Shown in pieces: positions 1,199 through 37,390 of a stretch of 64,000 bases of DNA (its first letter is position 1; each line of letters opens with the position of its first letter). The translations under genes and the position numbers were made by a program. The stretch spans positions 806,001 through 870,000 of the forward strand of contig BROI01000011.1 in NCBI GenBank assembly GCA_027923505.1, given 5' to 3'. Origin of the DNA: Mayamaea pseudoterrestris. Taxonomy: Eukaryota. The notes below the pieces were generated by a model. That model did not search any database and was not told the DNA's origin. It saw only the letters and a program-made list of their open reading frames with translations.

Positions 1199-3636
1199 AT
1201 GACGGAAGAAGAGACGCAACAGCGTCTCATTCTCAGTCCAGAAGATGCCATGGACGACTTTGACACAAGCAGCGAGGATGAAAACAAACCGCCTCGTCCA
1301 CCGGGACGCGCCAAAGCTCCTCGTCCAAGCATGGTCGCACGACAAAGTCTTGCGACAAAGCGACGCCGTCGAAGCAGCATGATTCGCAATCGATTGAGTC
1401 TTACGTCGGCGAATGGAACGACACCTTCCGAACAGCACCTTGGTGAGCTCTATCGCAAGGCTATACGTATGAACGCCGAGAACCGCATCAATGCTCAAAA
1501 CTCTTGGAACTTGCCACTCATTGAGCACATTGACAAATTTTTGGAGGAAGATGAGGAGGAGGGAGAGGAAGAAAACCATATCAGCGATATGGAGTCAAGC
1601 CAGACGCCGAAAGCAAGCAAGCGAGTCAACTTCACCAAAGCCTCCTGCACACTTGATGCGTCAGTTAAAATTTACTCATTTCGAGTCGATGATGTCCATC
1701 TCACGAGCTACAAGGTCCTTGCGAACTTGAACCGCAATCAGAAACCGAATGAAAAGGACGGTGACGATGGAATCTTCCCGACGAATCATGACGATGAAGG
1801 CGACGAGACAGCCACCAAAACACCGGCCCGGAAGACGGCACGCTCCGCTCAAACCTTGGAAACTAATCGAGGTAAATTTTCTGATGGCATTCTTTATGGG
1901 AGTGTGCGCGCGCTTACTCAATCTTCCTTCTTTCTACTGACGCAGCAAACATTAATCTTAATCGCTTGGATGCGGCTTTTGACATTGACCCTCTCTTCCA
2001 CAAGATGAGCAAGAACTTTGACGAAGGCGGCGCGAAAGGTCTCTTGCTAGCGAACTTGCACACAAAAAATTGTAGCATTGTTTTCGACTCCAGCGAAGAA
2101 GAGGGCGTCACGGCTTTCAGTCAGCCAGAACCGGAATCGGTTGATATCTCGAGTTTGCAGAACAAATTAGAAAGCACGCTTGAAGATCAGCCTCTGGTTT
2201 CAATGCCGCTGGTACCTCAGCTCGCTAGCCTGAGAGCCGAGTTTGAAATTCTACTAAGCCAAGGCTTTGTGGTGGCTGACAGTAGTCTTAAGAGCAAACG
2301 TTTCCAGCCATCTGCTGATGAAGAGGAGCTCGCCGACAAATCGATCCATCAAGAGGCCCTTGAACGCAGCACTCGCACACCAGCCAAATCGGTCATGCGA
2401 GATGTTGACGACAGTGGCGACTTCAGCGAAATTCGTGGCAGTGGCATACGAGCCTTTCAAATTACTCCACAGGGCGAGTTCGCAGCCGATGAGTATGGCG
2501 CTGATGACTTTGGAGGCGGAGGTGACGATTATGATGACGATCACTTTGTCAACTTTATTGCTCAAGAGCAGCGTTATTCTGGCATCTCATTTTCGGCCGG
2601 CAGCCGTATCGATGATGGTTCAGATGGCAATCCCTTTGGTGACGATGACAAGGAGCCTTCTCCGACTACCGTTCTCCTGGACGCGCTTTCTAATAACAAC
2701 AACAATTTGCTTTCTCAAAGCAATTATTCCTATTTGAACGAGAAAGCACTCTCTCGCGTTGAAAATCTTTGGGCTGGAGCGACGCATTGGAAGCCAGCTC
2801 GCAAGAATGGACGCCAAACTGCCACAGCACAAGTCGCTGCGAAGAAGAAGAAAGGGCCTCGCAAAAAGGCGTCCAAAGAACGCACGTTTGTTTGCTTTGC
2901 TATGGCTCCAGATTTATCGGGGATTCTCCAAAAGCCTCCTCAGAAGAAGCGTGGAGCAAATCCGCTTTTGATGTCGGCGGCCATGATCAAGAAGCATGCC
3001 GCCAACTTAAACCTGCTGCCGCTGGATGCTGGCATCGGCATCGCGGAACTTACCAAGCTATTTCTTCGCCCGGATGCTGTCGTCTCATCATCATCGAATG
3101 CCCATTCTGCTGATGGGATTTTGACTGGTGGCCCATCCAAGTCTGTCGCCTTTGACATGACTGCCCACGACCCGTGGGGCGACGGTGGCGATGACGATGA
3201 TGGAACTGGCTTTGCCATGAATAATGACGACTCTATCGACGAGAACCAAGATTTTTGCATCCGCGAGCTGGATGATGTCCGACGCGTTGAAAAGGTGCGA
3301 GTCGGCTACGCGACAGTGGCCAAGAAGGTGGACGTCAAAAAGTTGAAGCGAGATTTGTGGAAGGAGCTGGAGGATCGTTTCTCCAGCAACGAGATAACGG
3401 ATGACGAAGATATGGTTGATGACGAGCGGGTCGAGGAAACGCTTGGTGTTGGTGTTTCCTTCCAGCACGCTGTCCAGGAATTGGAGCAGCGCAAGACTCA
3501 GCCTGACGCCACCCTATCCTTTTACTTTATCTCAATTTTGCACCTTGCGAACGAAAAGGGTCTCCGATTGGAGTCCAAGGGTCTTTGTGACTTTGAGATT
3601 TATCAAGACAAGAATTTCGTCGGCGGAAGCATTTAG
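1199..3636 (+). CDS. NCAPH: Condensin complex subunit 2 / CAP-H (barren, kleisin); exons 1199-1871, 1946-3636
   Basis: Motifs ENRINAQNSWNL, NFTKASCTLDASVKIYSFRVDDVH, IDPLFHKMSKNFDEGGAKGLLLANL, WAGATHWK, YATVAKKVDVKKLK and YFISILHLANEKGL. A 74-bp GT..AG intron joins the two ORFs in frame. Confidence 0.93.
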
Positions 3637-15909: not shown

Positions 15910-16338
15910 TATTTTTGGAAATCATCCTGGTTTCTACCGGTAGGCGCTGAATAGCGTAGCTTTGCGATTGTTGGCGATGGTTTTGGACTGCGCCATGGTG
16001 AACCGCTCAGTGGCATTGAAAAGTGAAAACTTCGAGAGCATCCGTCGTACATTTAAACCGACAGTCAAGAAACGCATTGTGAGTAAGTGATGACGCATTT
16101 CATCGGATACCTCCGAAAGCGCGAGTGAAATGTGCCCACCCTTGGCGTCGCTTGCTTGGCTTTTGGGCTTGGCCATGACGATCTTGCTTTGCGTTGCAAG
16201 TTTGCTTATTTTCTTAACAGAATCGTATCTCCTGGTTGAAAATCTCACTAAAACTGCATTGTGGTCTTGTATTGCTACATGCGAAGCTTCAAAATGCAGG
16301 GGTTGCGGACACTTCCGACCTTCAAGGCACCATCAAGC

Positions 16339-18984
16339 ATGATCCGATGGCTAAATCGATGCGGAAGCACGGCGCTAATGGCTGTCTTCTTGTTACTTTG
16401 CCATGCTGTTCAAAGTGAAGATCTAAATAATCCAGACTATCTGACAACAGATTCGGTTGTATTGATTACTGGAGCTGGCGGCTTTATCGGAAGCGAATTG
16501 GCATTGGCGTTGCATCGAACGTATGGACCCAAGAAACTCATCCTCATTGACTCCATGGATCGTGGCTTTGGAGGCATGACTCCGGAAAGCGTTTTAAACG
16601 GCAAGGCGCCCGAAAAAACCGAAGCTGATTTGGCCTTGCTGGAATTTAAGCGACAACGAGTCTTTCGCGTCATGCAGGAGCTGGGTCCAACGGCTCACTT
16701 TTATCGCGTCGACTTTCGACCCAATGTTCCAGAGTTTCATGAAGCTGGAGAAGTCCCAGTTTTGCATCATATTTTTACAATTCACTCGGATATTACGCAT
16801 GTTGTTCACTTGGCCGATCATTATCACCGCGGGTCGACCTTTGAAAAACGAAAACAGGATCAGTTGCTCACGCAAACGATTCCAAGAATTCATGGGCAAC
16901 CAAAGGCTGGTATGATGGAGTCACTTTTGGAGGAGTTGCGGGTTGTCAAGAAGATTCAAACGCTGCCACATTTTGTGTATGCTTCGACGCATGAAGTTTA
17001 CAATTTTCGGGGCGACAAGAGCAATCCACCTCCATTTCAGGAAGACAAGCCATTGTCGACTCCTTCGTCATTTGCAGGAGCGTCGAAACTTATGGACGAA
17101 ATTCTTGCGCAAACATACTACAAAACGGATGACATTTATAGCGTCGGCTTGCGCTTCTTCTCAGTTTATGGTCCTTGGGGGTTGCCAGGAAGTCCACTTT
17201 ACGAAATGGCCGAACGAGCCATTCATGGCAACAATCCACTGGAGCTCGACACGGATATCTTACATGACATTCGCGACTTTGTGTACATTGACGACGCCAT
17301 TGATGCTATCATGAGTGCCATGCAATTTCGTCACGAGAAGCCCGTCGTGTTCAATGTTGGCTCCGGAACAGGATCGACCCTACTGCAAGTCGGCAAGTTG
17401 ATGGAGGTGGCAGTGGATGGCAAGAGTTTGGCTCAGGTGGCGACTGAAGATCCCGAAACAACTTCTATTGCACATAATGGTCGTGCGGAGCGCGTTCTTG
17501 GATTCAAGCCACACGTCTCGCTAGAGCAGGGATTGGAGCGCTTGCTGGCGTGGCATTATGATCGAGCGTACCCTTACGGACCTCCTGATGACGCCGACGA
17601 TCGCAAACAGATTTCAGGAAAGGGAATTGTTGCATGCAACAAGTACGATAAGGAGTGCTTGCTTGGGGCGGCTGTATTTCCTTGTGCGTCAGAGTGTGCG
17701 CACGAGACGCAATGCATAACGTCGTTTTATGACGATGTGCAAGCGTACACGCGGGTTCTGACGGATGAATGTGATGCAGTCATGTACACGGTAGCTCTCG
17801 ACGACAGTTTAAGTGTTATTCCTTCGGCTCAGGTGCAAGTGTCGGCAAATTCGAAATCACACATTGAAGGCAACGGTGGACGATGTAATATTGCATTCGT
17901 ATCGGAGTCAAGTCCTCTATTCCGCCGGCTATCGTCCAGCCAAGCTGGTCAAGGTAAAGATGTTCCTATCATGCACGGGCATTGGGTTCTCGTCCCTGTG
18001 ATGGTTTCAAGTCACGTTGCCGAGATGATGCACATCTTGAAACTTCTGCCAAAGTTATCACCTAGCCAATTCTTTGGAAGCCGTACGACGCGAGCAATAT
18101 ACTGTGATCCTACCGTTGTCCTGGACAATGTGTCGTTACTCTTGACAGAATTCGACAAAAAGCCGACAGGTGCAGACGGCCCTGTCGCGACAGGGCTCCT
18201 TATTGGCAAACAGCGCTCTGGCGGGCAAGGAAGGTTGCTGGAGTCAAGCTCTTCAGTGCGTGAACGAATTCAAAATACCGCTTATCGAATGATTAGAATT
18301 GCCGCAATTGACGAAATGGCGGGAGACGGCTTCTCAATGCACTTTGATTCTTCCTTCATGATTCACGCGCTGACTGGCGACGATACCCGGTTATTTCGCT
18401 GTGACATTTTTGGTGAAGTTATCCAGTGGGATGTTACGGCAGACGCTTCATCAATCGAGTTTATCTCAGGGCTCCACGACATGTGGAGTCGAGTCATTGA
18501 CAAGAAGCGCGACTCTCAGCCCTGGTGGACTGGAAACAACATGTCTGAGAGAAAAGACAGGCACTCAGATTTGAAATCAAATGCCGAAATCAGCGTGAAA
18601 CAAGTGCCGCAAGTCGGCAAGAGCAGGCGAAGACTGCAGGAGGTTGGCGAAGAAGATTTTCTTGGTCAAGGTAACGACGTTGTTGGCGTCGGTGGCATGT
18701 CTGAAGCAATCCAAGACGCAGTACGAGCTGTTTTTGGAGAATCGATCAACAAACAGCTCGACCAAGACGATGATGACGACAGTAGTCCCGACGGGGATGG
18801 AGGAAATCACGCGATCGAACATGAGTCTGCGGATGTTGTCTTACCATTATCTGGTAAAGGCGGAAGCGATAGCGACACGTGGATCGGAATATTATCTTCG
18901 GCAGATTTACGGTACTACGCGCACATTGTAGATGCCAAAAATTTTGGTGTCGTTCATCTTGACGAGTACGCTGGTGACTCATAA
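16339..18984 (+). CDS. Secretory-pathway NAD-dependent epimerase-like (UDP-glucuronate 4-epimerase-like extended SDR) + DUF616-like fusion; alternative ATGs at 16279/16294
   Basis: Signal-like MIRWLNRCGSTALMAVFLLLCHAVQS; VLITGAGGFIG, THVVHLA, GLRFFSVYGPWG, RDFVYIDD, VFNVGSG, LGFKPHVSLEQGLERLLAW; then FPCASEC, CNIAFVS, KLLPKLSP..FF, RAIYCD, LFRCD. Confidence 0.8.
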   Translation: MIRWLNRCGSTALMAVFLLLCHAVQSEDLNNPDYLTTDSVVLITGAGGFIGSELALALHRTYGPKKLILIDSMDRGFGGMTPESVLNGKAPEKTEADLALLEFKRQRVFRVMQELGPTAHFYRVDFRPNVPEFHEAGEVPVLHHIFTIHSDITHVVHLADHYHRGSTFEKRKQDQLLTQTIPRIHGQPKAGMMESLLEELRVVKKIQTLPHFVYASTHEVYNFRGDKSNPPPFQEDKPLSTPSSFAGASKLMDEILAQTYYKTDDIYSVGLRFFSVYGPWGLPGSPLYEMAERAIHGNNPLELDTDILHDIRDFVYIDDAIDAIMSAMQFRHEKPVVFNVGSGTGSTLLQVGKLMEVAVDGKSLAQVATEDPETTSIAHNGRAERVLGFKPHVSLEQGLERLLAWHYDRAYPYGPPDDADDRKQISGKGIVACNKYDKECLLGAAVFPCASECAHETQCITSFYDDVQAYTRVLTDECDAVMYTVALDDSLSVIPSAQVQVSANSKSHIEGNGGRCNIAFVSESSPLFRRLSSSQAGQGKDVPIMHGHWVLVPVMVSSHVAEMMHILKLLPKLSPSQFFGSRTTRAIYCDPTVVLDNVSLLLTEFDKKPTGADGPVATGLLIGKQRSGGQGRLLESSSSVRERIQNTAYRMIRIAAIDEMAGDGFSMHFDSSFMIHALTGDDTRLFRCDIFGEVIQWDVTADASSIEFISGLHDMWSRVIDKKRDSQPWWTGNNMSERKDRHSDLKSNAEISVKQVPQVGKSRRRLQEVGEEDFLGQGNDVVGVGGMSEAIQDAVRAVFGESINKQLDQDDDDDSSPDGDGGNHAIEHESADVVLPLSGKGGSDSDTWIGILSSADLRYYAHIVDAKNFGVVHLDEYAGDS

Positions 18985-26652: not shown

Positions 26653-26869
26653 GGTGATGAAGCGCTGAAAATGAGATGATCGCGTGACACCCGCCAATTT
26701 CAGTGCCGCACCGACGTTGCATGCGACTTGTGGAACGAAGCGCCGTCCGATTATCTGTCGACCACCATGAGCTCATTAATCTATCTTCTCTGGATCAAAA
26801 GCAAAGCAATCTTCACTCCAAACGGATTTTTAGACTTTTGAAAGGCTAGTAGGCCATCAATCGATAATC

Positions 26870-28360
26870 ATGTACTGCGGCGACGAGACAGGCTCATTCA
26901 TCGGAGACGTTGGGTCACACACGTCACGCTTTGGCTATGGAGGAAACGATAGTCCAGTCTATCATGTACCCTCCTACACTTCAACGTTTGGAAATGACAA
27001 GCCAGTCGTCGTGCCTAGTTGCTTGTCAAATCAGTGGGCTCAGAGAACTGTACAGACTCCGCTTCGACAACCGAGAATGTCGTCGGACGACGACGCCTAC
27101 AGCCAGCCCATTGTGGATCCAACAAGCTATTTGCAGCAAAGTGATTCGGCGGAAAATTACAACTCACTAGAGCATATTTGGCGGAAGGCTATGGTGGATA
27201 TGAGAGTATTTGACAACCTGAAACATACCAAAGGATCTGATACATCCAGGAAGGAAACTGTGGCTGCATCCGGCGTCAAGAGTTCATCCATTCAAGCGCA
27301 AGCCTTGGCCGACGGCAAATGCGTTCATCCCATCCTCGCCGTATCACCTGGTTGTACCTTTAAGGTCGGATCAAGCAATATTGCTGCTGACAGTCGCAAG
27401 GAACTCATTAAATTAGCCGAACTTATGATGGAAACCTTTGACGCCAAGGCATTCTTTTGTGCACCGACACCCATGCTGGCAGCCTTTTCGCACGGTCGAC
27501 CGACGGCGCTCGTCGTGGACATTGGCGCTGGAGGAACTCGAGTGACACCTGTCATTGATGGACTGGTCATGAAGCAAGCTCAGCGCCGAAGTGGGCGAGG
27601 TGGTGACTGGTTAAGCAATGTACAATGGAAGGCCATCATGTCGCAAGTTGACGAGGAAATACGACCTCACTATCAAGTGTCTTTCAAAAGTACGTTAAAA
27701 TCTAAAGGAATATACCATCGATGGGCCATGCAGGAAATCATGTACGAGTTTCAAACGTCAGGATACGTTCACTTGGCGAATTGGTGGCACGATTCGACGG
27801 TTCCTTTCGTTTATGCCGATGATGCAATGGATGTCGACCCAGCATCTCCAGCTTCCGCATCGACTGAATCGAGCTATGTACTACCCGATGGTCAAGTGAT
27901 TGATTTAACGAACCGAGTCGGCAAGGACCTTTGTCGCATTCCAGAGCTTTATTTTTCGGATGAGCTTCCCTATTTACCAGACAACAAGATCGTCGACCAG
28001 TCGATATTGGGTCAACACTTTACACTCTCCAATCTATCACTCCCTCGACTAATACACTCTTCTCTGTCGGCTGTGGGCGACGTTGACGCTCGCAAGGATC
28101 TGGCTGGATCAATCTTGTTGACGGGCGGGTCTTCGCAATTCGAAAACTTGGAGCAACGACTCTCGCTGGAAGTGCCACGGTATGTATCAAGCGCATTCAA
28201 GTGCAAAGTAGTAGCAAGCAAGCATTCGATTGAGCGGTCATGCGCCTCCTGGATTGGCGGAAGTATATTGACAAGCTTGGGAAGCTTCCAGCAGCTTTGG
28301 ATGAGTCGGGCCGAGTATGAGGAGTACGGAGCTGCTTTGGCTGTTCAACGATTTCCATAA
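26870..28360 (+). CDS. ARP4: Nuclear actin-related protein, ARP4-like
   Basis: MYCGDE..DVGSHTSRFGYGG, LAAFSHGRPTALVVDIGAGGTRVTPVIDG, YVLPDGQ, ILLTGG, SWIGGSILTSLGSFQQLWMSRAEYEEYG. Confidence 0.88.
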   Translation: MYCGDETGSFIGDVGSHTSRFGYGGNDSPVYHVPSYTSTFGNDKPVVVPSCLSNQWAQRTVQTPLRQPRMSSDDDAYSQPIVDPTSYLQQSDSAENYNSLEHIWRKAMVDMRVFDNLKHTKGSDTSRKETVAASGVKSSSIQAQALADGKCVHPILAVSPGCTFKVGSSNIAADSRKELIKLAELMMETFDAKAFFCAPTPMLAAFSHGRPTALVVDIGAGGTRVTPVIDGLVMKQAQRRSGRGGDWLSNVQWKAIMSQVDEEIRPHYQVSFKSTLKSKGIYHRWAMQEIMYEFQTSGYVHLANWWHDSTVPFVYADDAMDVDPASPASASTESSYVLPDGQVIDLTNRVGKDLCRIPELYFSDELPYLPDNKIVDQSILGQHFTLSNLSLPRLIHSSLSAVGDVDARKDLAGSILLTGGSSQFENLEQRLSLEVPRYVSSAFKCKVVASKHSIERSCASWIGGSILTSLGSFQQLWMSRAEYEEYGAALAVQRFP

Positions 28361-32887: not shown

Positions 32888-33348
32888 AATAAGTATCACT
32901 TTCCCTCAAGTTACTCATGCAGCAACATGTCCCTTGCTTAGCATTGTACATTAACATCTAACTTTGACACATAAAGTAACACAACATTGAAGACAATACC
33001 TCTCTGCCCCAAGTCACTCATGCAGCAACATGTCCCATGCATAGCATTGTACGTTAACATCTAGCTTTGACAAATAATATAAACACAAGGCTTTCTGAAC
33101 CAACATCAAGCTGTGACTCCATAGTACTTGTAGTTTCCAACAAGCCAAGCCATGTGTTTCAGTTGCATCTGTTTGATGTGATGACAAGACACCACACAAC
33201 CACGGTACGACACATTGCAAGTGATAATTATTTCACCGATTCACAGCTAGTAAGGGCCCCTTTAGCTCAGTCGGTAGAGCGTACGTCTCATAAACCAATC
33301 AAAAACGCAGAGCCAGCGTAAGGTCAGCAGTTCGATCCTGTTAGGGGG
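32888..33348 (+). repeat. ~460-bp direct repeat, copy 1 (upstream flank + tRNA-Met body)
   Basis: Aligns to 36913-37373 at offset 4025 with about 8 differences by eye. Confidence 0.95.
32907..33078. repeat. Diverged internal duplication (~68-bp core, 103-bp spacing) inside the direct repeat; also present in copy 2
   Basis: caagttactcatgcagcaacatgtccc.. at 32907 and caagtcactcatgcagcaacatgtccc.. at 33010. Confidence 0.85.
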
Positions 33349-33350
33349 AC
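33256..33350 (+). pseudogene. tRNA-Met(CAT) copy with a broken 3' end (probable pseudo-tRNA)
   Basis: Identical to the 37281 gene through AGGGGG, but followed by AC instead of CA (G1:A72 mismatch) and no oligo-T terminator. Confidence 0.75.
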
Positions 33351-33570
33351 AAACAACAAGCTGTCTAGACAACAGTATTGGCAAGCAAGCAAGAGGAATG
33401 AGAGGCATTGGATGGGTGATTGGCAACTTGATCTGTGGCTGTCCATCCTCCATTGATGTCTCATCTGATGTGTCCCAGACCGTCAATGATGTGTGTATCA
33501 CTCAGAGTGTTCATATAAGCTATCTTATGAGTGTCCCAAGGCAGTGTCATCTAAACATTCACATTGAGCT

Positions 33571-34197
33571 GGACATTCAGCAAATGTGCAGATTGCCCTC
33601 CATCACTTGGCTGTTTCTACCTGCGATGCAAGGCTCTGTCCAATCTAGCTGCCCATCTGGAGACAGTGATGTCCATGTAGGTTGTGCATGCTATGTGACC
33701 CGGAAATCCGGGTCCGGGACATTCAGCGAAAGTGCAGATTGCCCTCCATCACTTGGCTGTTACTACCTGCGGTGCAAGGCTCTGTCCAATCTAGCTGCCC
33801 ATCTGGAGACAGCGATGTCCATGTAGGTTGTGCATGCTATTGACCTGGAAATCCGGGTCCAGGACATTCAGCAAATGTGCAGATTGCCCTCCATCACTTG
33901 GCTGTTACTGCAGACCTGCGAGACTGTCGGATGCATGTGACGGCTCTGTTCCAGATTGCCCTCATACTGGCTGCAGGCTCGCCAACCCCATCTGGAGACA
34001 GTGATGTCCATGTAGGTTGTGCATGCTATGTGACCTGGAAATCCGGGTCCAGGACATTCAGCAAAAGTGCAGATTGCCCTCCATCACTTGGCTGTTTCTA
34101 CCTGTGGTGCAAGGCTCTGTCCAATCTAGCTGCCCATCTGGAGACAGTGATGTCCATGTAGGTTGTGCATGCTATGTGACCCAGAAATCTGGGTCTG
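33571..34197. repeat. 146-bp tandem repeat, 4 copies (third copy scrambled and longer)
   Basis: Units start ggacattcagc at 33571, 33717, 33862 and 34052. Confidence 0.92.
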
Positions 34198-34329
34198 TGA
34201 ACAAGAAACCATGTCATCAATGATGACTGACAGCAAATCCCGTCCATGACAAGAGTTGCCTCAACCCACAGGACACCAGCCAGCTGGAGGGTGTCCCACC
34301 ACACAACAACAGTGGCTGAGTGTTGAGAA

Positions 34330-35560
34330 CTGCAAAAAGAGACAGGGAAGAAAGAACAAGTCACCAAAGACAATTTGCAGTGGACAGCCTCCTGTAAAGT
34401 AATGGTTGCCACACCTTGGTTGTCAACAAACAAGAAGAATCAAATTTGCGATCTGGGCCAAGGAGTCAAAAGCATCCTTGATTGTATTGGTTGGTGGTGG
34501 CTTGGAATAGTATCACAACGTAGCAGTACTCGCATTCAGAAGGCAAAACCTAACACACCCCAGAATCGAAACAGAGCACCAGCAAACTATTCACGTTGCT
34601 CAAACAGTGCCGCTGCATGTATATAACTACTGTTTCAGTCACTAGTATGGCTCAAAGTACAAACACCATGCTGTGCCATTACATTGTGACAGATAGTTTC
34701 ATGACTTCCTTGGGTGTGAGCAGAGGTGACACGGTTCTGTGGATGCTGTCCCTATGTCAAGGGTGGCAGCAATCAGACTGCATATTTCTCTTAGCATCAT
34801 ATACCAACCAGGGCACGGGATGTCACAAAATATTTTGCCCCACTGGGATAACCAGCCAGTCTGCCAGGATGGTATCAAAGGTGATTGCGATGTTGGGGTG
34901 ATAATGGAGCCATCGGAATGCTGCTGATTATTATTTGCTGCCATGTAAATTCCCTCCATTGGAATATCCACTTGTAACTTCCATATGAGCTTGATCATGC
35001 ATGGAATGACTAAGCCATTTATCAGGCAATTGACGTTGCCTCTATCAAGTGGGTGTAAAGGCATGGAAGGATCACTAAACAAGTGTCCTTCGTCACCAAG
35101 GCGCCCATGTTTTGGAGGGATGTACCAGATCAAGGCCAGGAAGTGACTAGGTACATGCGCCCAAAGGCAGCAAGGGAACATGAAGTGGTATGACAATTTT
35201 TCTTCCATTCTGTATTTTTCAATAATGTTGTCCAATCTTTGTCAAGCCCTCTGTTGTTTTCTTGTTTGCGTCAAGCAACATCCTCAAACGGGTAGACAAA
35301 GTCACTGCAGAAAGGGATGCCAGCATCCTTCTCTTTTCCCTGGAAGTTGTCCATCAGGTAATGAGGTGGCAAGGTGACATGCTGGAGGCTGGCAAGTGAA
35401 TCTTGGAGCAGTGTTTGAACTTTGGTGGCGTGAGTGCACACCCCTCCCAGCCAGCAAAGTAAGTCATGTATAGGAAGTTACATTGTAGAGGAGCAGCTCC
35501 CATGTTGTCAACTCTTTGCGGACAGATGTCACTGGTGTCCTTATTAGGATAAAGGTGTGT
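34330..35560 (-). mobile_element. Decayed reverse transcriptase remnant, DIRS/tyrosine-recombinase retrotransposon-like
   Basis: Across frameshifts on the minus strand: DLLCWLGGVCTHA (~35440), EEKLSYHFMFP, LIWKLQVDIPMEGIYMAANN / SAAFRWLHYHPNIAI..LVIPVG (~34980-34840; RT 'DD..AFR' block) and LFVDNQGVA (~34430; YxDD-type block). Confidence 0.6.
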
Positions 35561-36912
35561 CTGTGTGAGATACCAGACGGGACTGGTGATGCTCATGTGC
35601 AAATGTGTGTGTAGCTTTGGTGGTGATTACCAATGGCGTCGCAATGTCATGTCATCCCGTGCAGATAAGTTGCCCCATGCGAGATGCAGAATGAAGTAGA
35701 GAGAGGTGTGTGCATGCTCACAGCTGAGATTGATGGTCACCTTTTCAAGCCGGCGGAGGTAGACCCTTGTTTGGGATAATTATGGAACAGGTAGACTTTC
35801 TGCAGGCCTTCTACTGACAGTGCTGCTGCAATGTCCACTCTGACAAATTAGTTCAGCCAAGTTAATAAATCTGCTTTTTGGAATGTTATTTCATAGTTCT
35901 TTATCCAAGTTTGTGTTTTTATGTTCTACATACCAGGCAAGTACCACATGTTGTCCATGTGAGTGGAAATGGAAAGTGGAGACGTCCAGTGATTAATCAA
36001 AATTTGTTAACACCATTGACAATCACACAATCATAGTCTTACCTCCAAAAAGCTCTGATACAGGATTCTTGGCCACAGTCTGTACAGCTCTTGATGGAGA
36101 TGCTTTGCAGAATAGTCTCGCGCTCACCACTACATGAATACAACTTCACTCTCATTGCATAACAGTAATACCATATTGTGTGTTACTTTTTACATCACTA
36201 CCATTGACTCCACTCAGAAGATCATCCAGTCAATCAGTTTCTTTCAATCACTTTCCTTCAGTTGCTATTTGTTACAACAAATCCACATATTGGTTGCACA
36301 ATTTCTCTAGTCACATGTCACATACGACGCGCTGCGGACTTGACACCAGCTATTTAGGGTTCAGTTCTTGACTTTGTTGCTCTACAACTTGTCATTTGTC
36401 ATATCATGAGAGCCTAATAATTGCTTTTGGTTGTTGGGCCAATGTCCATCAATGTGTGCAGCAAGTGGTCCCACAATAGCTGACGGCGTAGGGCTAGCTT
36501 GGGATGGTGAAAAGTGCTGAAAGCTGTTTGCAACTGGAGGCCTTTCCAATTGTTCCATGTGTTGGTGGCCTGTGACATGAATAGCGTATCAACTTTTACT
36601 AGATTGGGGCTTTGTTGCTGAGGTGGTGGAGCCTATTGCGTGTCCCAAGCCAAAGCTGTAATTCAGGTGCAGCAGGGTTATTGGCATCATCATTCTCTTG
36701 TTTGAAGCAAAAACTTTCCCTTGGTGAGGACTTCCTGGCCCTCCATCCAACCATCAATCTGGAATGCCATTGCGGTGGCTTTCTCCTCTTCTTTGGGGCC
36801 ATGTCACCCAACCAGGTTGTAGAAGCCTTGTTTGGATCAGCAGATGTAAACATCTTGCAGAGCTCCTGGAAAACAGACAACCTTCATGATAGAAGGAATG
36901 AGGGAGTCTACC

Positions 36913-37373
36913 AATAAGTACATCTTTCCCTCAAGCTACTCATGCAGCAACATGTCCCTTGCTTAGCATTGTACATTTATATCTAACTTTGACACATAAA
37001 GTAACACAACATTGAAGACAATACCTCTCTGCCCCAAGTCACTCATGCAGCAACATGTCCCATGCATAGCATTGTACGTTAACATCTAGCTTTAACACAT
37101 AATATAAACACAAGGCTTTCTGAACCAACATCAAGCTGTGACTCCATAGTACTTGTAGTTTCCAACAAGCCAAGCCATGTGTTTCAGTTGCATCTGTTTG
37201 ATGTGATGACAAGACACCACACAACCACGGTACGACACATTGCAAGTGATAATTATTTCACCGATTCACAGCTAGTAAGGGCCCCTTTAGCTCAGTCGGT
37301 AGAGCGTACGTCTCATAAACCAATCAAAAACGCAGAGCCAGCGTAAGGTCAGCAGTTCGATCCTGTTAGGGGG
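36913..37373 (+). repeat. ~460-bp direct repeat, copy 2
   Basis: Partner of 32888-33348. Confidence 0.95.
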
Positions 37374-37375
37374 CA
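37281..37375 (+). tRNA. Elongator tRNA-Met(CAT) with a 22-nt intron (37318-37339)
   Basis: Acceptor GCCCCTT/AGGGGGC+A, D arm GCTC/GAGC, anticodon stem TACGT/GCGTA with CT-CAT-A loop and intron at the canonical 37/38 position, T arm AGCAG-TTCGATC-CTGTT. Confidence 0.92.
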
Positions 37376-37377
37376 CA

Positions 37378-37390
37378 TTTTTTGCTTTTT
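37378..37390 (+). terminator. RNA polymerase III oligo-T terminator
   Basis: T6 and T5 runs start 3 nt after the tRNA discriminator base. Confidence 0.8.

Follow-up and report, generated by a model that had tools for sequence, protein, structure and literature searches.

Two copies of a tRNA-Met gene flank a decayed retroelement in a 64,000-nucleotide stretch of the Mayamaea pseudoterrestris genome (assembly GCA_027923505.1, contig BROI01000011.1, positions 806,001 to 870,000 of the forward strand; hereafter the window, with positions counted from its first letter). The locus raises the question of whether a mobile element of this diatom seeks out or carries a tRNA gene. An earlier note, made from the letters alone, had offered three explanations: tRNA-targeted integration or recombination, a non-autonomous element whose terminal repeats carry a gene for RNA polymerase III (Pol III), or a one-off local duplication. 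We found that the insert is a decayed remnant of a Ngaro-type tyrosine-recombinase retrotransposon on the minus strand, assigned by the structural features of its intact relatives. With high confidence, the arrangement arose as one local rearrangement rather than through a targeted or Cassandra-like element. Our favored account, at a probability of about 0.5, is a one-off repair product beside a resident dead retrotransposon, in which a break at a G-rich spacer was healed by copying. A dead retrotransposon accompanied by a local duplication is an ordinary structure and does not represent a new class of tRNA-targeting or tRNA-carrying element; the part worth following is the conserved spacer and its recurrent break. 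Contigs of the assembly are labeled "C" plus a number, and the window lies on C11.

Direct repeats and their tRNA-Met genes

The direct repeats occupy 32888-33348 (copy 1) and 36913-37373 (copy 2) on the plus strand. They are 98.3% identical over 461 bp at an offset of 4,025 and enclose 3,564 bp, in agreement with the tRNA-bearing repeats and 3.56-kb insert of the earlier note. Its estimate of about eight differing sites was also accurate. We counted 8 (32896-98, 32911, 32953, 32955, 33069 and 33073), all in the first 186 bp, with the final 275 bp identical; if an even spread of six events is assumed, such clustering has a P value of about 0.004. Copy 1 comprises about 370 bp of CpG-depleted flank and tRNA-Met positions 1-71, and its left neighbor is unique host DNA. 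Within the repeat lies an old tandem pair of 103-bp units (32904-33109, plus strand), which serves as an outgroup for polarizing the differences between the copies. Four of the five polarizable changes fall on copy 2, the copy that touches the gag end of the insert, and these are too few to count.

The tRNA gene of copy 2 (37281-37375, plus strand) is an intact elongator tRNA-Met(CAU) gene with an intron, aligned by Rfam to model positions 1-71 with 53.2 bits. It ends in CA and is followed by a T6 terminator at 37378-37383. The gene of copy 1 (33256-33348, plus strand) was aligned by Rfam from 33257 to 33348, to model positions 2-69, with 39.1 bits. Its anticodon-loop intron and elongator type were read directly off the sequence, and its internal promoter boxes are identical to those of copy 2. 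Copy 1 gives way to the insert two bases before its tRNA is complete; C72/A73 and the terminator are missing. The truncation and the early end of repeat identity, both previously noted, were borne out by Rfam and by alignment.

The 461-bp repeat has two matches in the assembly, both at this locus, and the elongator-type tRNA-Met pattern matches only these two copies. Our tRNA survey, a lower bound for which the best 63 of 826 candidates were scored, called 45 genes in 44 other tRNA loci, and the one other CAU gene found among them has initiator features. Judged by sequence pattern, the intact gene seems to be the only elongator tRNA-Met locus of its kind. No match to the repeat flank or to the 105 bp after copy 2, and hence no source for the flank, was present among the fetched loci.

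Cassandra terminal-repeat retrotransposons in miniature also hold a Pol III gene within long direct repeats, as described in PMC7215508, and each repeat here contains such a gene, a tRNA and not 5S. We nevertheless regard a Cassandra-like non-autonomous element as scarcely credible. There is no family of such units, as the two repeat copies occur at a single locus, and neither copy has the TG..CA ends of a long terminal repeat (LTR), an absence already remarked on. On the left, copy 1 borders unique host DNA, and on the right, copy 2 continues into the native terminator. The interior is 3.56 kb of a dead autonomous element, a coding remnant of a different class.

An assembly artefact, for example two haplotypes joined at the tRNA, would also produce two similar repeats, and the difference between them lies within the range of alleles. 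We checked the junctions with contigs from four of seven listed public runs, of which X4 and X6 cover little of the stretch. Contigs of run X2 extend across the left junction, at 32899-33600, and across the right one, at 36312-36953, and thus bound the element by the repeat on both sides. Run X1 contigs also cross both junctions, with short sides of only 30 and 23 letters, below the 31-letter rule. The two repeat copies open with different bases in the run contigs. Each junction is thus bridged, but among the pieces from the four runs none spans both repeats. On balance, we consider an artefact very improbable. Run X2 has no contig over 37264-37450, a gap that carries no weight either way. The two runs come from two studies, each of which could be related to the assembly's source. 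Both runs differ from the window by an additional G after 35590, by G>A at 33482 and by 8 bp inserted after 31257, which may be assembly errors or variants of the window haplotype.

The insert and the Ngaro-type family

The description of the insert as a retroelement-derived cassette holds for its decayed reverse transcriptase (RT) and gag sequences on the minus strand. Two corrections apply: the insert is a composite of Ngaro remnants, two nested solo LTRs and a 146-bp tandem expansion, and its ends are not element ends. Pfam gave no match in any of the six frames of the insert (0/6), and tblastn with intact relatives recovered RT and gag remnants interrupted by frameshifts and stops. All features of the element lie on the minus strand. 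Repeat A2 (33349-33574) abuts the tRNA at the point where intact copies carry a G-rich spacer. Repeat B1 follows (33571-34267), in which a 146-bp stretch has been expanded into four tandem copies, and then element sequence adjoining B1 (34268-34358). The recombinase and RNase H regions were deleted between about 34358 and 34380. The RT remnant (34380-35820) is 35-62% identical by piece to intact relatives, and the remnants of a gag-like open reading frame (ORF; 35803-36907) have internal deletions and homology that ends about 43 bp short of repeat A1. The window copy therefore keeps A2, B1, part of the RT and gag pieces, and lacks A1, the spacer, B2, RNase H and the recombinase.

Both solo LTRs are on the minus strand. 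The first (34511-34691, 181 bp) lies within the RT, has 5-bp flanks with one mismatch and is 87-88% identical to an LTR pair on C5. The second (36008-36394) belongs to an abundant Copia-type family, has an exact 5-bp target-site duplication and is 78% identical to live copies. The C5 kin of the first LTR (C5:575709-576290; L046/L047) consists of two 184-bp LTRs with 98.9% identity, separated by 399 bp, and includes a primer-site-like stretch; it is possibly a very short non-autonomous LTR element.

Relative to live copies, the insert repeats and the larger LTR have changed at about half of their CpG positions and at 8-13% of their other positions. The loss of CpG sites inflates the apparent age of the insert. 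No near-identical second copy of the decayed insert was found in the assembly by several searches, one of which scored 40 of 137 candidates; other matches are short pieces of 68-88% identity. The absence of a donor elsewhere points to a rearrangement at this locus, and the one-off local duplication of the earlier note fits both this and the two matches of the repeat.

The class of the element is apparent from its intact relatives. Ngaro elements of the order DIRS, such as those of Cafeteria burkhardae, have split direct repeats according to PMC8547959, and VIPER shows the same repeat pattern (PMC6681497). Intact relatives in the assembly read A1, gag-like ORF, RT/RNase H, recombinase, B1, A2, a 15-nt spacer and B2. 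Their A and B repeats are about 210-235 bp long, with identity of up to 100% within one element. The split arrangement A1-ORFs-B1-A2-B2 is present in C15a, C15b, C14, C9b, C2a and C1. Full-length elements lie at C15:94503-103101, C15:104146-112213, C14:737777-746569, C9:810500-819233, C2:238563-247357 and C1:212274-221078. Their terminal repeats are near-identical, and the RT and recombinase frames of several are long and open, which suggests recent activity of the family. Relatives of the RT fragment have open frames of up to about 1,000 residues.

Sequence-profile searches were uninformative: Pfam gave only sub-threshold matches for six intact family ORFs, and the RT alignment had no match in a PDB profile search. 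We therefore used fold searches for the RT and the recombinase. All listed top fold matches of the C32 protein model (predicted local distance difference test score, pLDDT, 80.6) are RTs, with a best E-value of 1.5e-7, and the RT remnant of the window aligns to this C32 protein. The recombinase model (pLDDT 90.7) matches Cre with an E-value of 2.5e-6 and a template modeling score of about 0.5-0.6, and R, K, HxxR, W and Y are invariant in the recombinases. The C-terminal part of the RT protein has invariant D, E, D, H, D columns, which may correspond to a DIRS-type RNase H. Proteins labeled Mayamaea pseudoterrestris are the closest database relatives of the element RT.

The family thus shares with Ngaro the split repeats, the gag-like ORF, the RT fold, the Cre-like recombinase and insertion with little or no duplication. 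It differs in its 15-nt A2/B2 spacer, in being nearly invisible to Pfam and in lying mostly beside satellites, and the window copy differs further in being dead. A search of titles and abstract openings returned no description of tyrosine-recombinase retrotransposons in diatoms or of Ngaro elements at satellites, although supplementary repeat tables may name the family.

Junctions and the G-rich spacer

A native copy of the element begins at A1 and finishes where B2 ends. The left junction lies exactly at the border of A2 and the spacer, such that the window copy starts at the first base after the spacer, and the tRNA acceptor stem supplies a GGG microhomology. The position of the break, two bases ahead of the tRNA 3' end, is better accounted for by the element than by the tRNA. 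At the right junction, about 43 bp short of A1, there is a 5-bp filler (36908-36912), which may be as long as about 17 bp, depending on whether the three altered bases that open copy 2 are counted with it. Neither junction is a native end, and so neither was made by the recombinase of the element.

This bears on the suggestion that a recombinase or a Pol III tether led the element to the tRNA 3' end. In prokaryotes, phages and islands that bring along the 3' end of a tRNA gene integrate at tRNA 3' ends through tyrosine recombinases, where the gene is rebuilt at the proximal junction and a short 3' piece is duplicated. The window resembles these systems in that a tyrosine-recombinase element abuts a tRNA 3' end, but here the proximal tRNA copy is broken and 370 bp of upstream flank are duplicated. 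Native insertions of the family show no long duplication, with a satellite phase offset of 0 at C15b and a 3-bp overlap at C14 (two cases). Retroelements beside tRNA genes in compact genomes are represented by TRE3, TRE5, Skipper-2 and Ty3, which insert at a set distance outside the gene and at many tRNA genes (PMC5911963); the window junction cuts into the tRNA gene, has no element end and occurs once.

The distribution of the family also argues against targeting of this kind. Tandem arrays abut 20 of the 28 other family sites, compared with 8 of 25 Copia LTR loci (Fisher P 0.006), in a tally made by hand against the best-scoring Copia loci and not a random draw. Survival in gene-free DNA may add to any satellite targeting in this count. 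The arrays are several unrelated satellites with units of about 162-183 and 347-371 bp. A tRNA gene is near only 1 of the 28 sites, a lone A1 fragment (C8:993491-993863; L121:1349-1722) whose native A1 end lies about 88 bp downstream of a tRNA-Ala(CGC) gene. Family DNA is present within about 750 bp of none of the other tRNA loci (0/44), and no tRNA gene was found at environmental recombinase loci (0/80). Targeting of tRNA genes is not the rule of this family. The C8 site does resemble the Dictyostelium retrotransposons that insert 40-150 bp downstream of tRNA genes (PMC5911963), and a weak family preference for the neighborhood of tRNA genes could have placed the ancestor near the tRNA-Met gene. 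As an explanation of the present junction, tRNA-targeted integration is largely refuted, and we consider it very unlikely.

The spacer at which the left junction falls reads GGGTGGGTGGGTGGG on the plus strand. It contains four GGG runs and is a minimal G-quadruplex (G4) motif of presumed stability. The four runs are kept in 13 of 14 spacers from four subfamilies, although the loop letters and the neighboring repeats diverge. These loci had been fetched beforehand, and we excluded a pattern-selected set of 14 matches from the count, as the pattern requires G-runs.

The break at the spacer recurs. A copy on C18 is cut at the same A2/spacer base as the window copy and has lost B2; satellite DNA amounting to 26 bp (modulo 169) is also gone, for a total loss of at least 253 bp. 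This copy (C18:259013-262766) also has an internal deletion, lacks the RT and recombinase, and holds about three satellite units within its gag region. A copy on C10 breaks 26 bp inside A2. Among A2+B1 copies with clean loss of B2, two of three break at the spacer border, with a post hoc P value of about 0.001 (0.0014). C9a was left out of this count because a nested insertion splits its A2. A candidate third clean break at C15:724507 was dropped, as its B2 and spacer are scrambled and not deleted. In a decayed solo copy on C2, only the spacer is missing.

We compared these junctions with the G4-induced deletions of Caenorhabditis elegans dog-1 mutants, which lack the DOG-1 helicase and repair such breaks by polymerase theta. 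According to PMC4654259, the 3' junctions of these deletions lie at or within 3 bp of the motif and the 5' junctions about 50-300 bp away. The window junction likewise lies directly 3' of a minimal four-run motif, with loss on the 5' side and microhomology; its polarity matches that of the worm deletions, and the size of the C18 deletion is within their range as given there. The window differs in its 461-bp duplication, which needs a long copying step, in its wild diatom host and in that the G4 is predicted from the motif alone. A literature search for G-quadruplexes in DIRS or Ngaro elements returned a general review only.

The spacer may also act in the life cycle of the element. A bolder reading, which we regard as doubtful, is that the four-run G tract which these elements carry on their minus strand between A2 and B2 is a programmed stop or strand-transfer signal in complementary DNA (cDNA) synthesis, and for this reason a recurrent break point. 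Copies that end exactly at A2, with rearranged host DNA, would then be the cost of a working spacer. The idea draws on the 13 of 14 spacers with four GGG runs and on environmental relatives. Among the 80 environmental loci, 48 have enough DNA after the recombinase, and 9 of these show a B1/B2 pair. In 8 of the 9, a C-rich tract (12-13 C in 18 nt) stands before B2 and not before B1; the loci (L201, L202, L204, L205, L243, L244, L259 and L262) have four or more C-runs and amount to about three of four distinct families. Against it, the strict four-run motif is present before B2 in none of the nine and occurs anywhere within 1.6 kb after the recombinase in only 2 of the 48. The conserved C-rich/G-rich spacer offers a testable handle on the poorly known cDNA synthesis of split-repeat retrotransposons.

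The same reading includes antisense read-through from the truncated tRNA gene. The first T4 run after tRNA copy 1 is at 34833, leaving none for 1.48 kb. Transcription of copy 1, if it takes place, would carry Pol III through about 1.5 kb in antisense orientation to A2 and B1, as predicted from the position of the terminator. Such read-through would be a possible source of silencing RNA against the family.

History and setting of the locus

In our favored account of break and repair, the element first would have inserted normally near the tRNA-Met gene on one homologue and then decayed by CpG loss, two LTR insertions, deletions and loss of A1. The four GGG runs of the spacer on the plus strand may then have stalled DNA synthesis, and the break that followed would have cost the element its spacer and B2, with one broken end placed precisely where A2 starts. 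The other end would have copied the flank and the tRNA from an insertion-free homologue or sister, up to the G-run of the acceptor stem, and joined A2 through GGG. The product would be the flank with a truncated tRNA, the element remnant, and the flank with the intact tRNA. In a variant, the element would first have occupied the edge of the satellite, downstream of the tRNA; a deletion triggered by the spacer would then have clipped the tRNA, and unequal exchange would later have restored an intact gene. In both versions, the tRNA would be a bystander host gene and the unit would not be mobile.

A spacer break followed by copying accounts for the exact left junction, the loss of B2, the missing donor and the allele-like distance between the repeats, as well as for survival, since the intact elongator tRNA-Met was kept. 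The repeat copies differ by 1.7%, compared with the 8-13% non-CpG change in the insert repeats and LTR. PMC9724779 describes Mayamaea pseudoterrestris as diploid with 2.97% heterogeneity, a value that may not apply to this assembly.

Several observations weigh against this account. An empty allele was not seen, and short-read contigs cannot show one at this locus. Loss of A1 requires a separate event. Recurrence of the spacer break consists of two exact cases only, the G4 step is a motif-level prediction compared with data from a helicase mutant, and the tRNA survey behind the argument for a sole elongator locus is incomplete. The repeat flank is depleted of CpG in both copies (observed/expected 0.30), and the depletion begins within about 65 bp of the left edge of copy 1. 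We considered whether tRNA upstream flanks are CpG-poor in general and rejected this, as the median for 45 other tRNA genes is 0.94 and only one is as low as the repeat flank. Copying from a clean empty allele would not be expected to yield such a flank, unless the depletion predates the copying or gene conversion took place afterwards. The flank also fits an old duplication whose two copies were homogenized by gene conversion.

That old duplication is the main rival, and we consider it possible although clearly less probable than break and repair. Here, a Ngaro copy already truncated, such as a cDNA in which second-strand synthesis had halted at the spacer, would long ago have been captured at a break with the 461-bp duplication and would have decayed in place, while the repeats were held similar by gene conversion. 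Beyond the CpG depletion that spans the flank and starts near its left edge, it is consistent with repeat differences limited to one end, the conserved spacer makes a stop in the element's own cycle plausible, and no empty allele is needed. However, no differences occur at the tRNA end, although this too is an edge of the repeat, frequently converting repeats would be expected to pop out as well, and the C18 copy lost satellite along with B2, which looks like a chromosomal deletion and not like a truncated cDNA. The earlier inference that the duplication is younger than the RT decay is plausible at most, as the CpG change inflates the apparent age of the insert and the CpG-depleted flank also fits an old duplication.

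An unlikely alternative is a tandem duplication of the tRNA region with normal insertion of the element between the copies, two trimming deletions and a chance match to the spacer. These steps are common, and the window copy has at least three other large deletions. However, four events are needed. One deletion must end within 5 bp of the start of copy 2 and the other precisely at the border of A2, and the identical break in C18 calls for an explanation of its own.

The structure stands at the border of two kinds of DNA. The left 32.7 kb of the window are gene-dense, and a 169-bp satellite, the usual neighbor of the Ngaro-type family, occupies the plus strand from about 37453 to 64000 and continues to C11:876978, about 33.5 kb in all. 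This array is depleted of CpG (observed/expected 0.28), lies between gene-dense arms and is a candidate centromeric block; arrays like it are present on many contigs of the assembly. The enrichment of the family at satellite arrays bears on whether such arrays are centromeric heterochromatin in a diatom. At C15:93770-93790, a short telomere-like TTAGGG stretch marks the border of two different satellites. The gene-dense part of the window encodes ordinary host proteins, including condensin subunit 2 (1885-3636), an NAD-dependent epimerase (16252-18984) and an actin-family protein (26834-28360).

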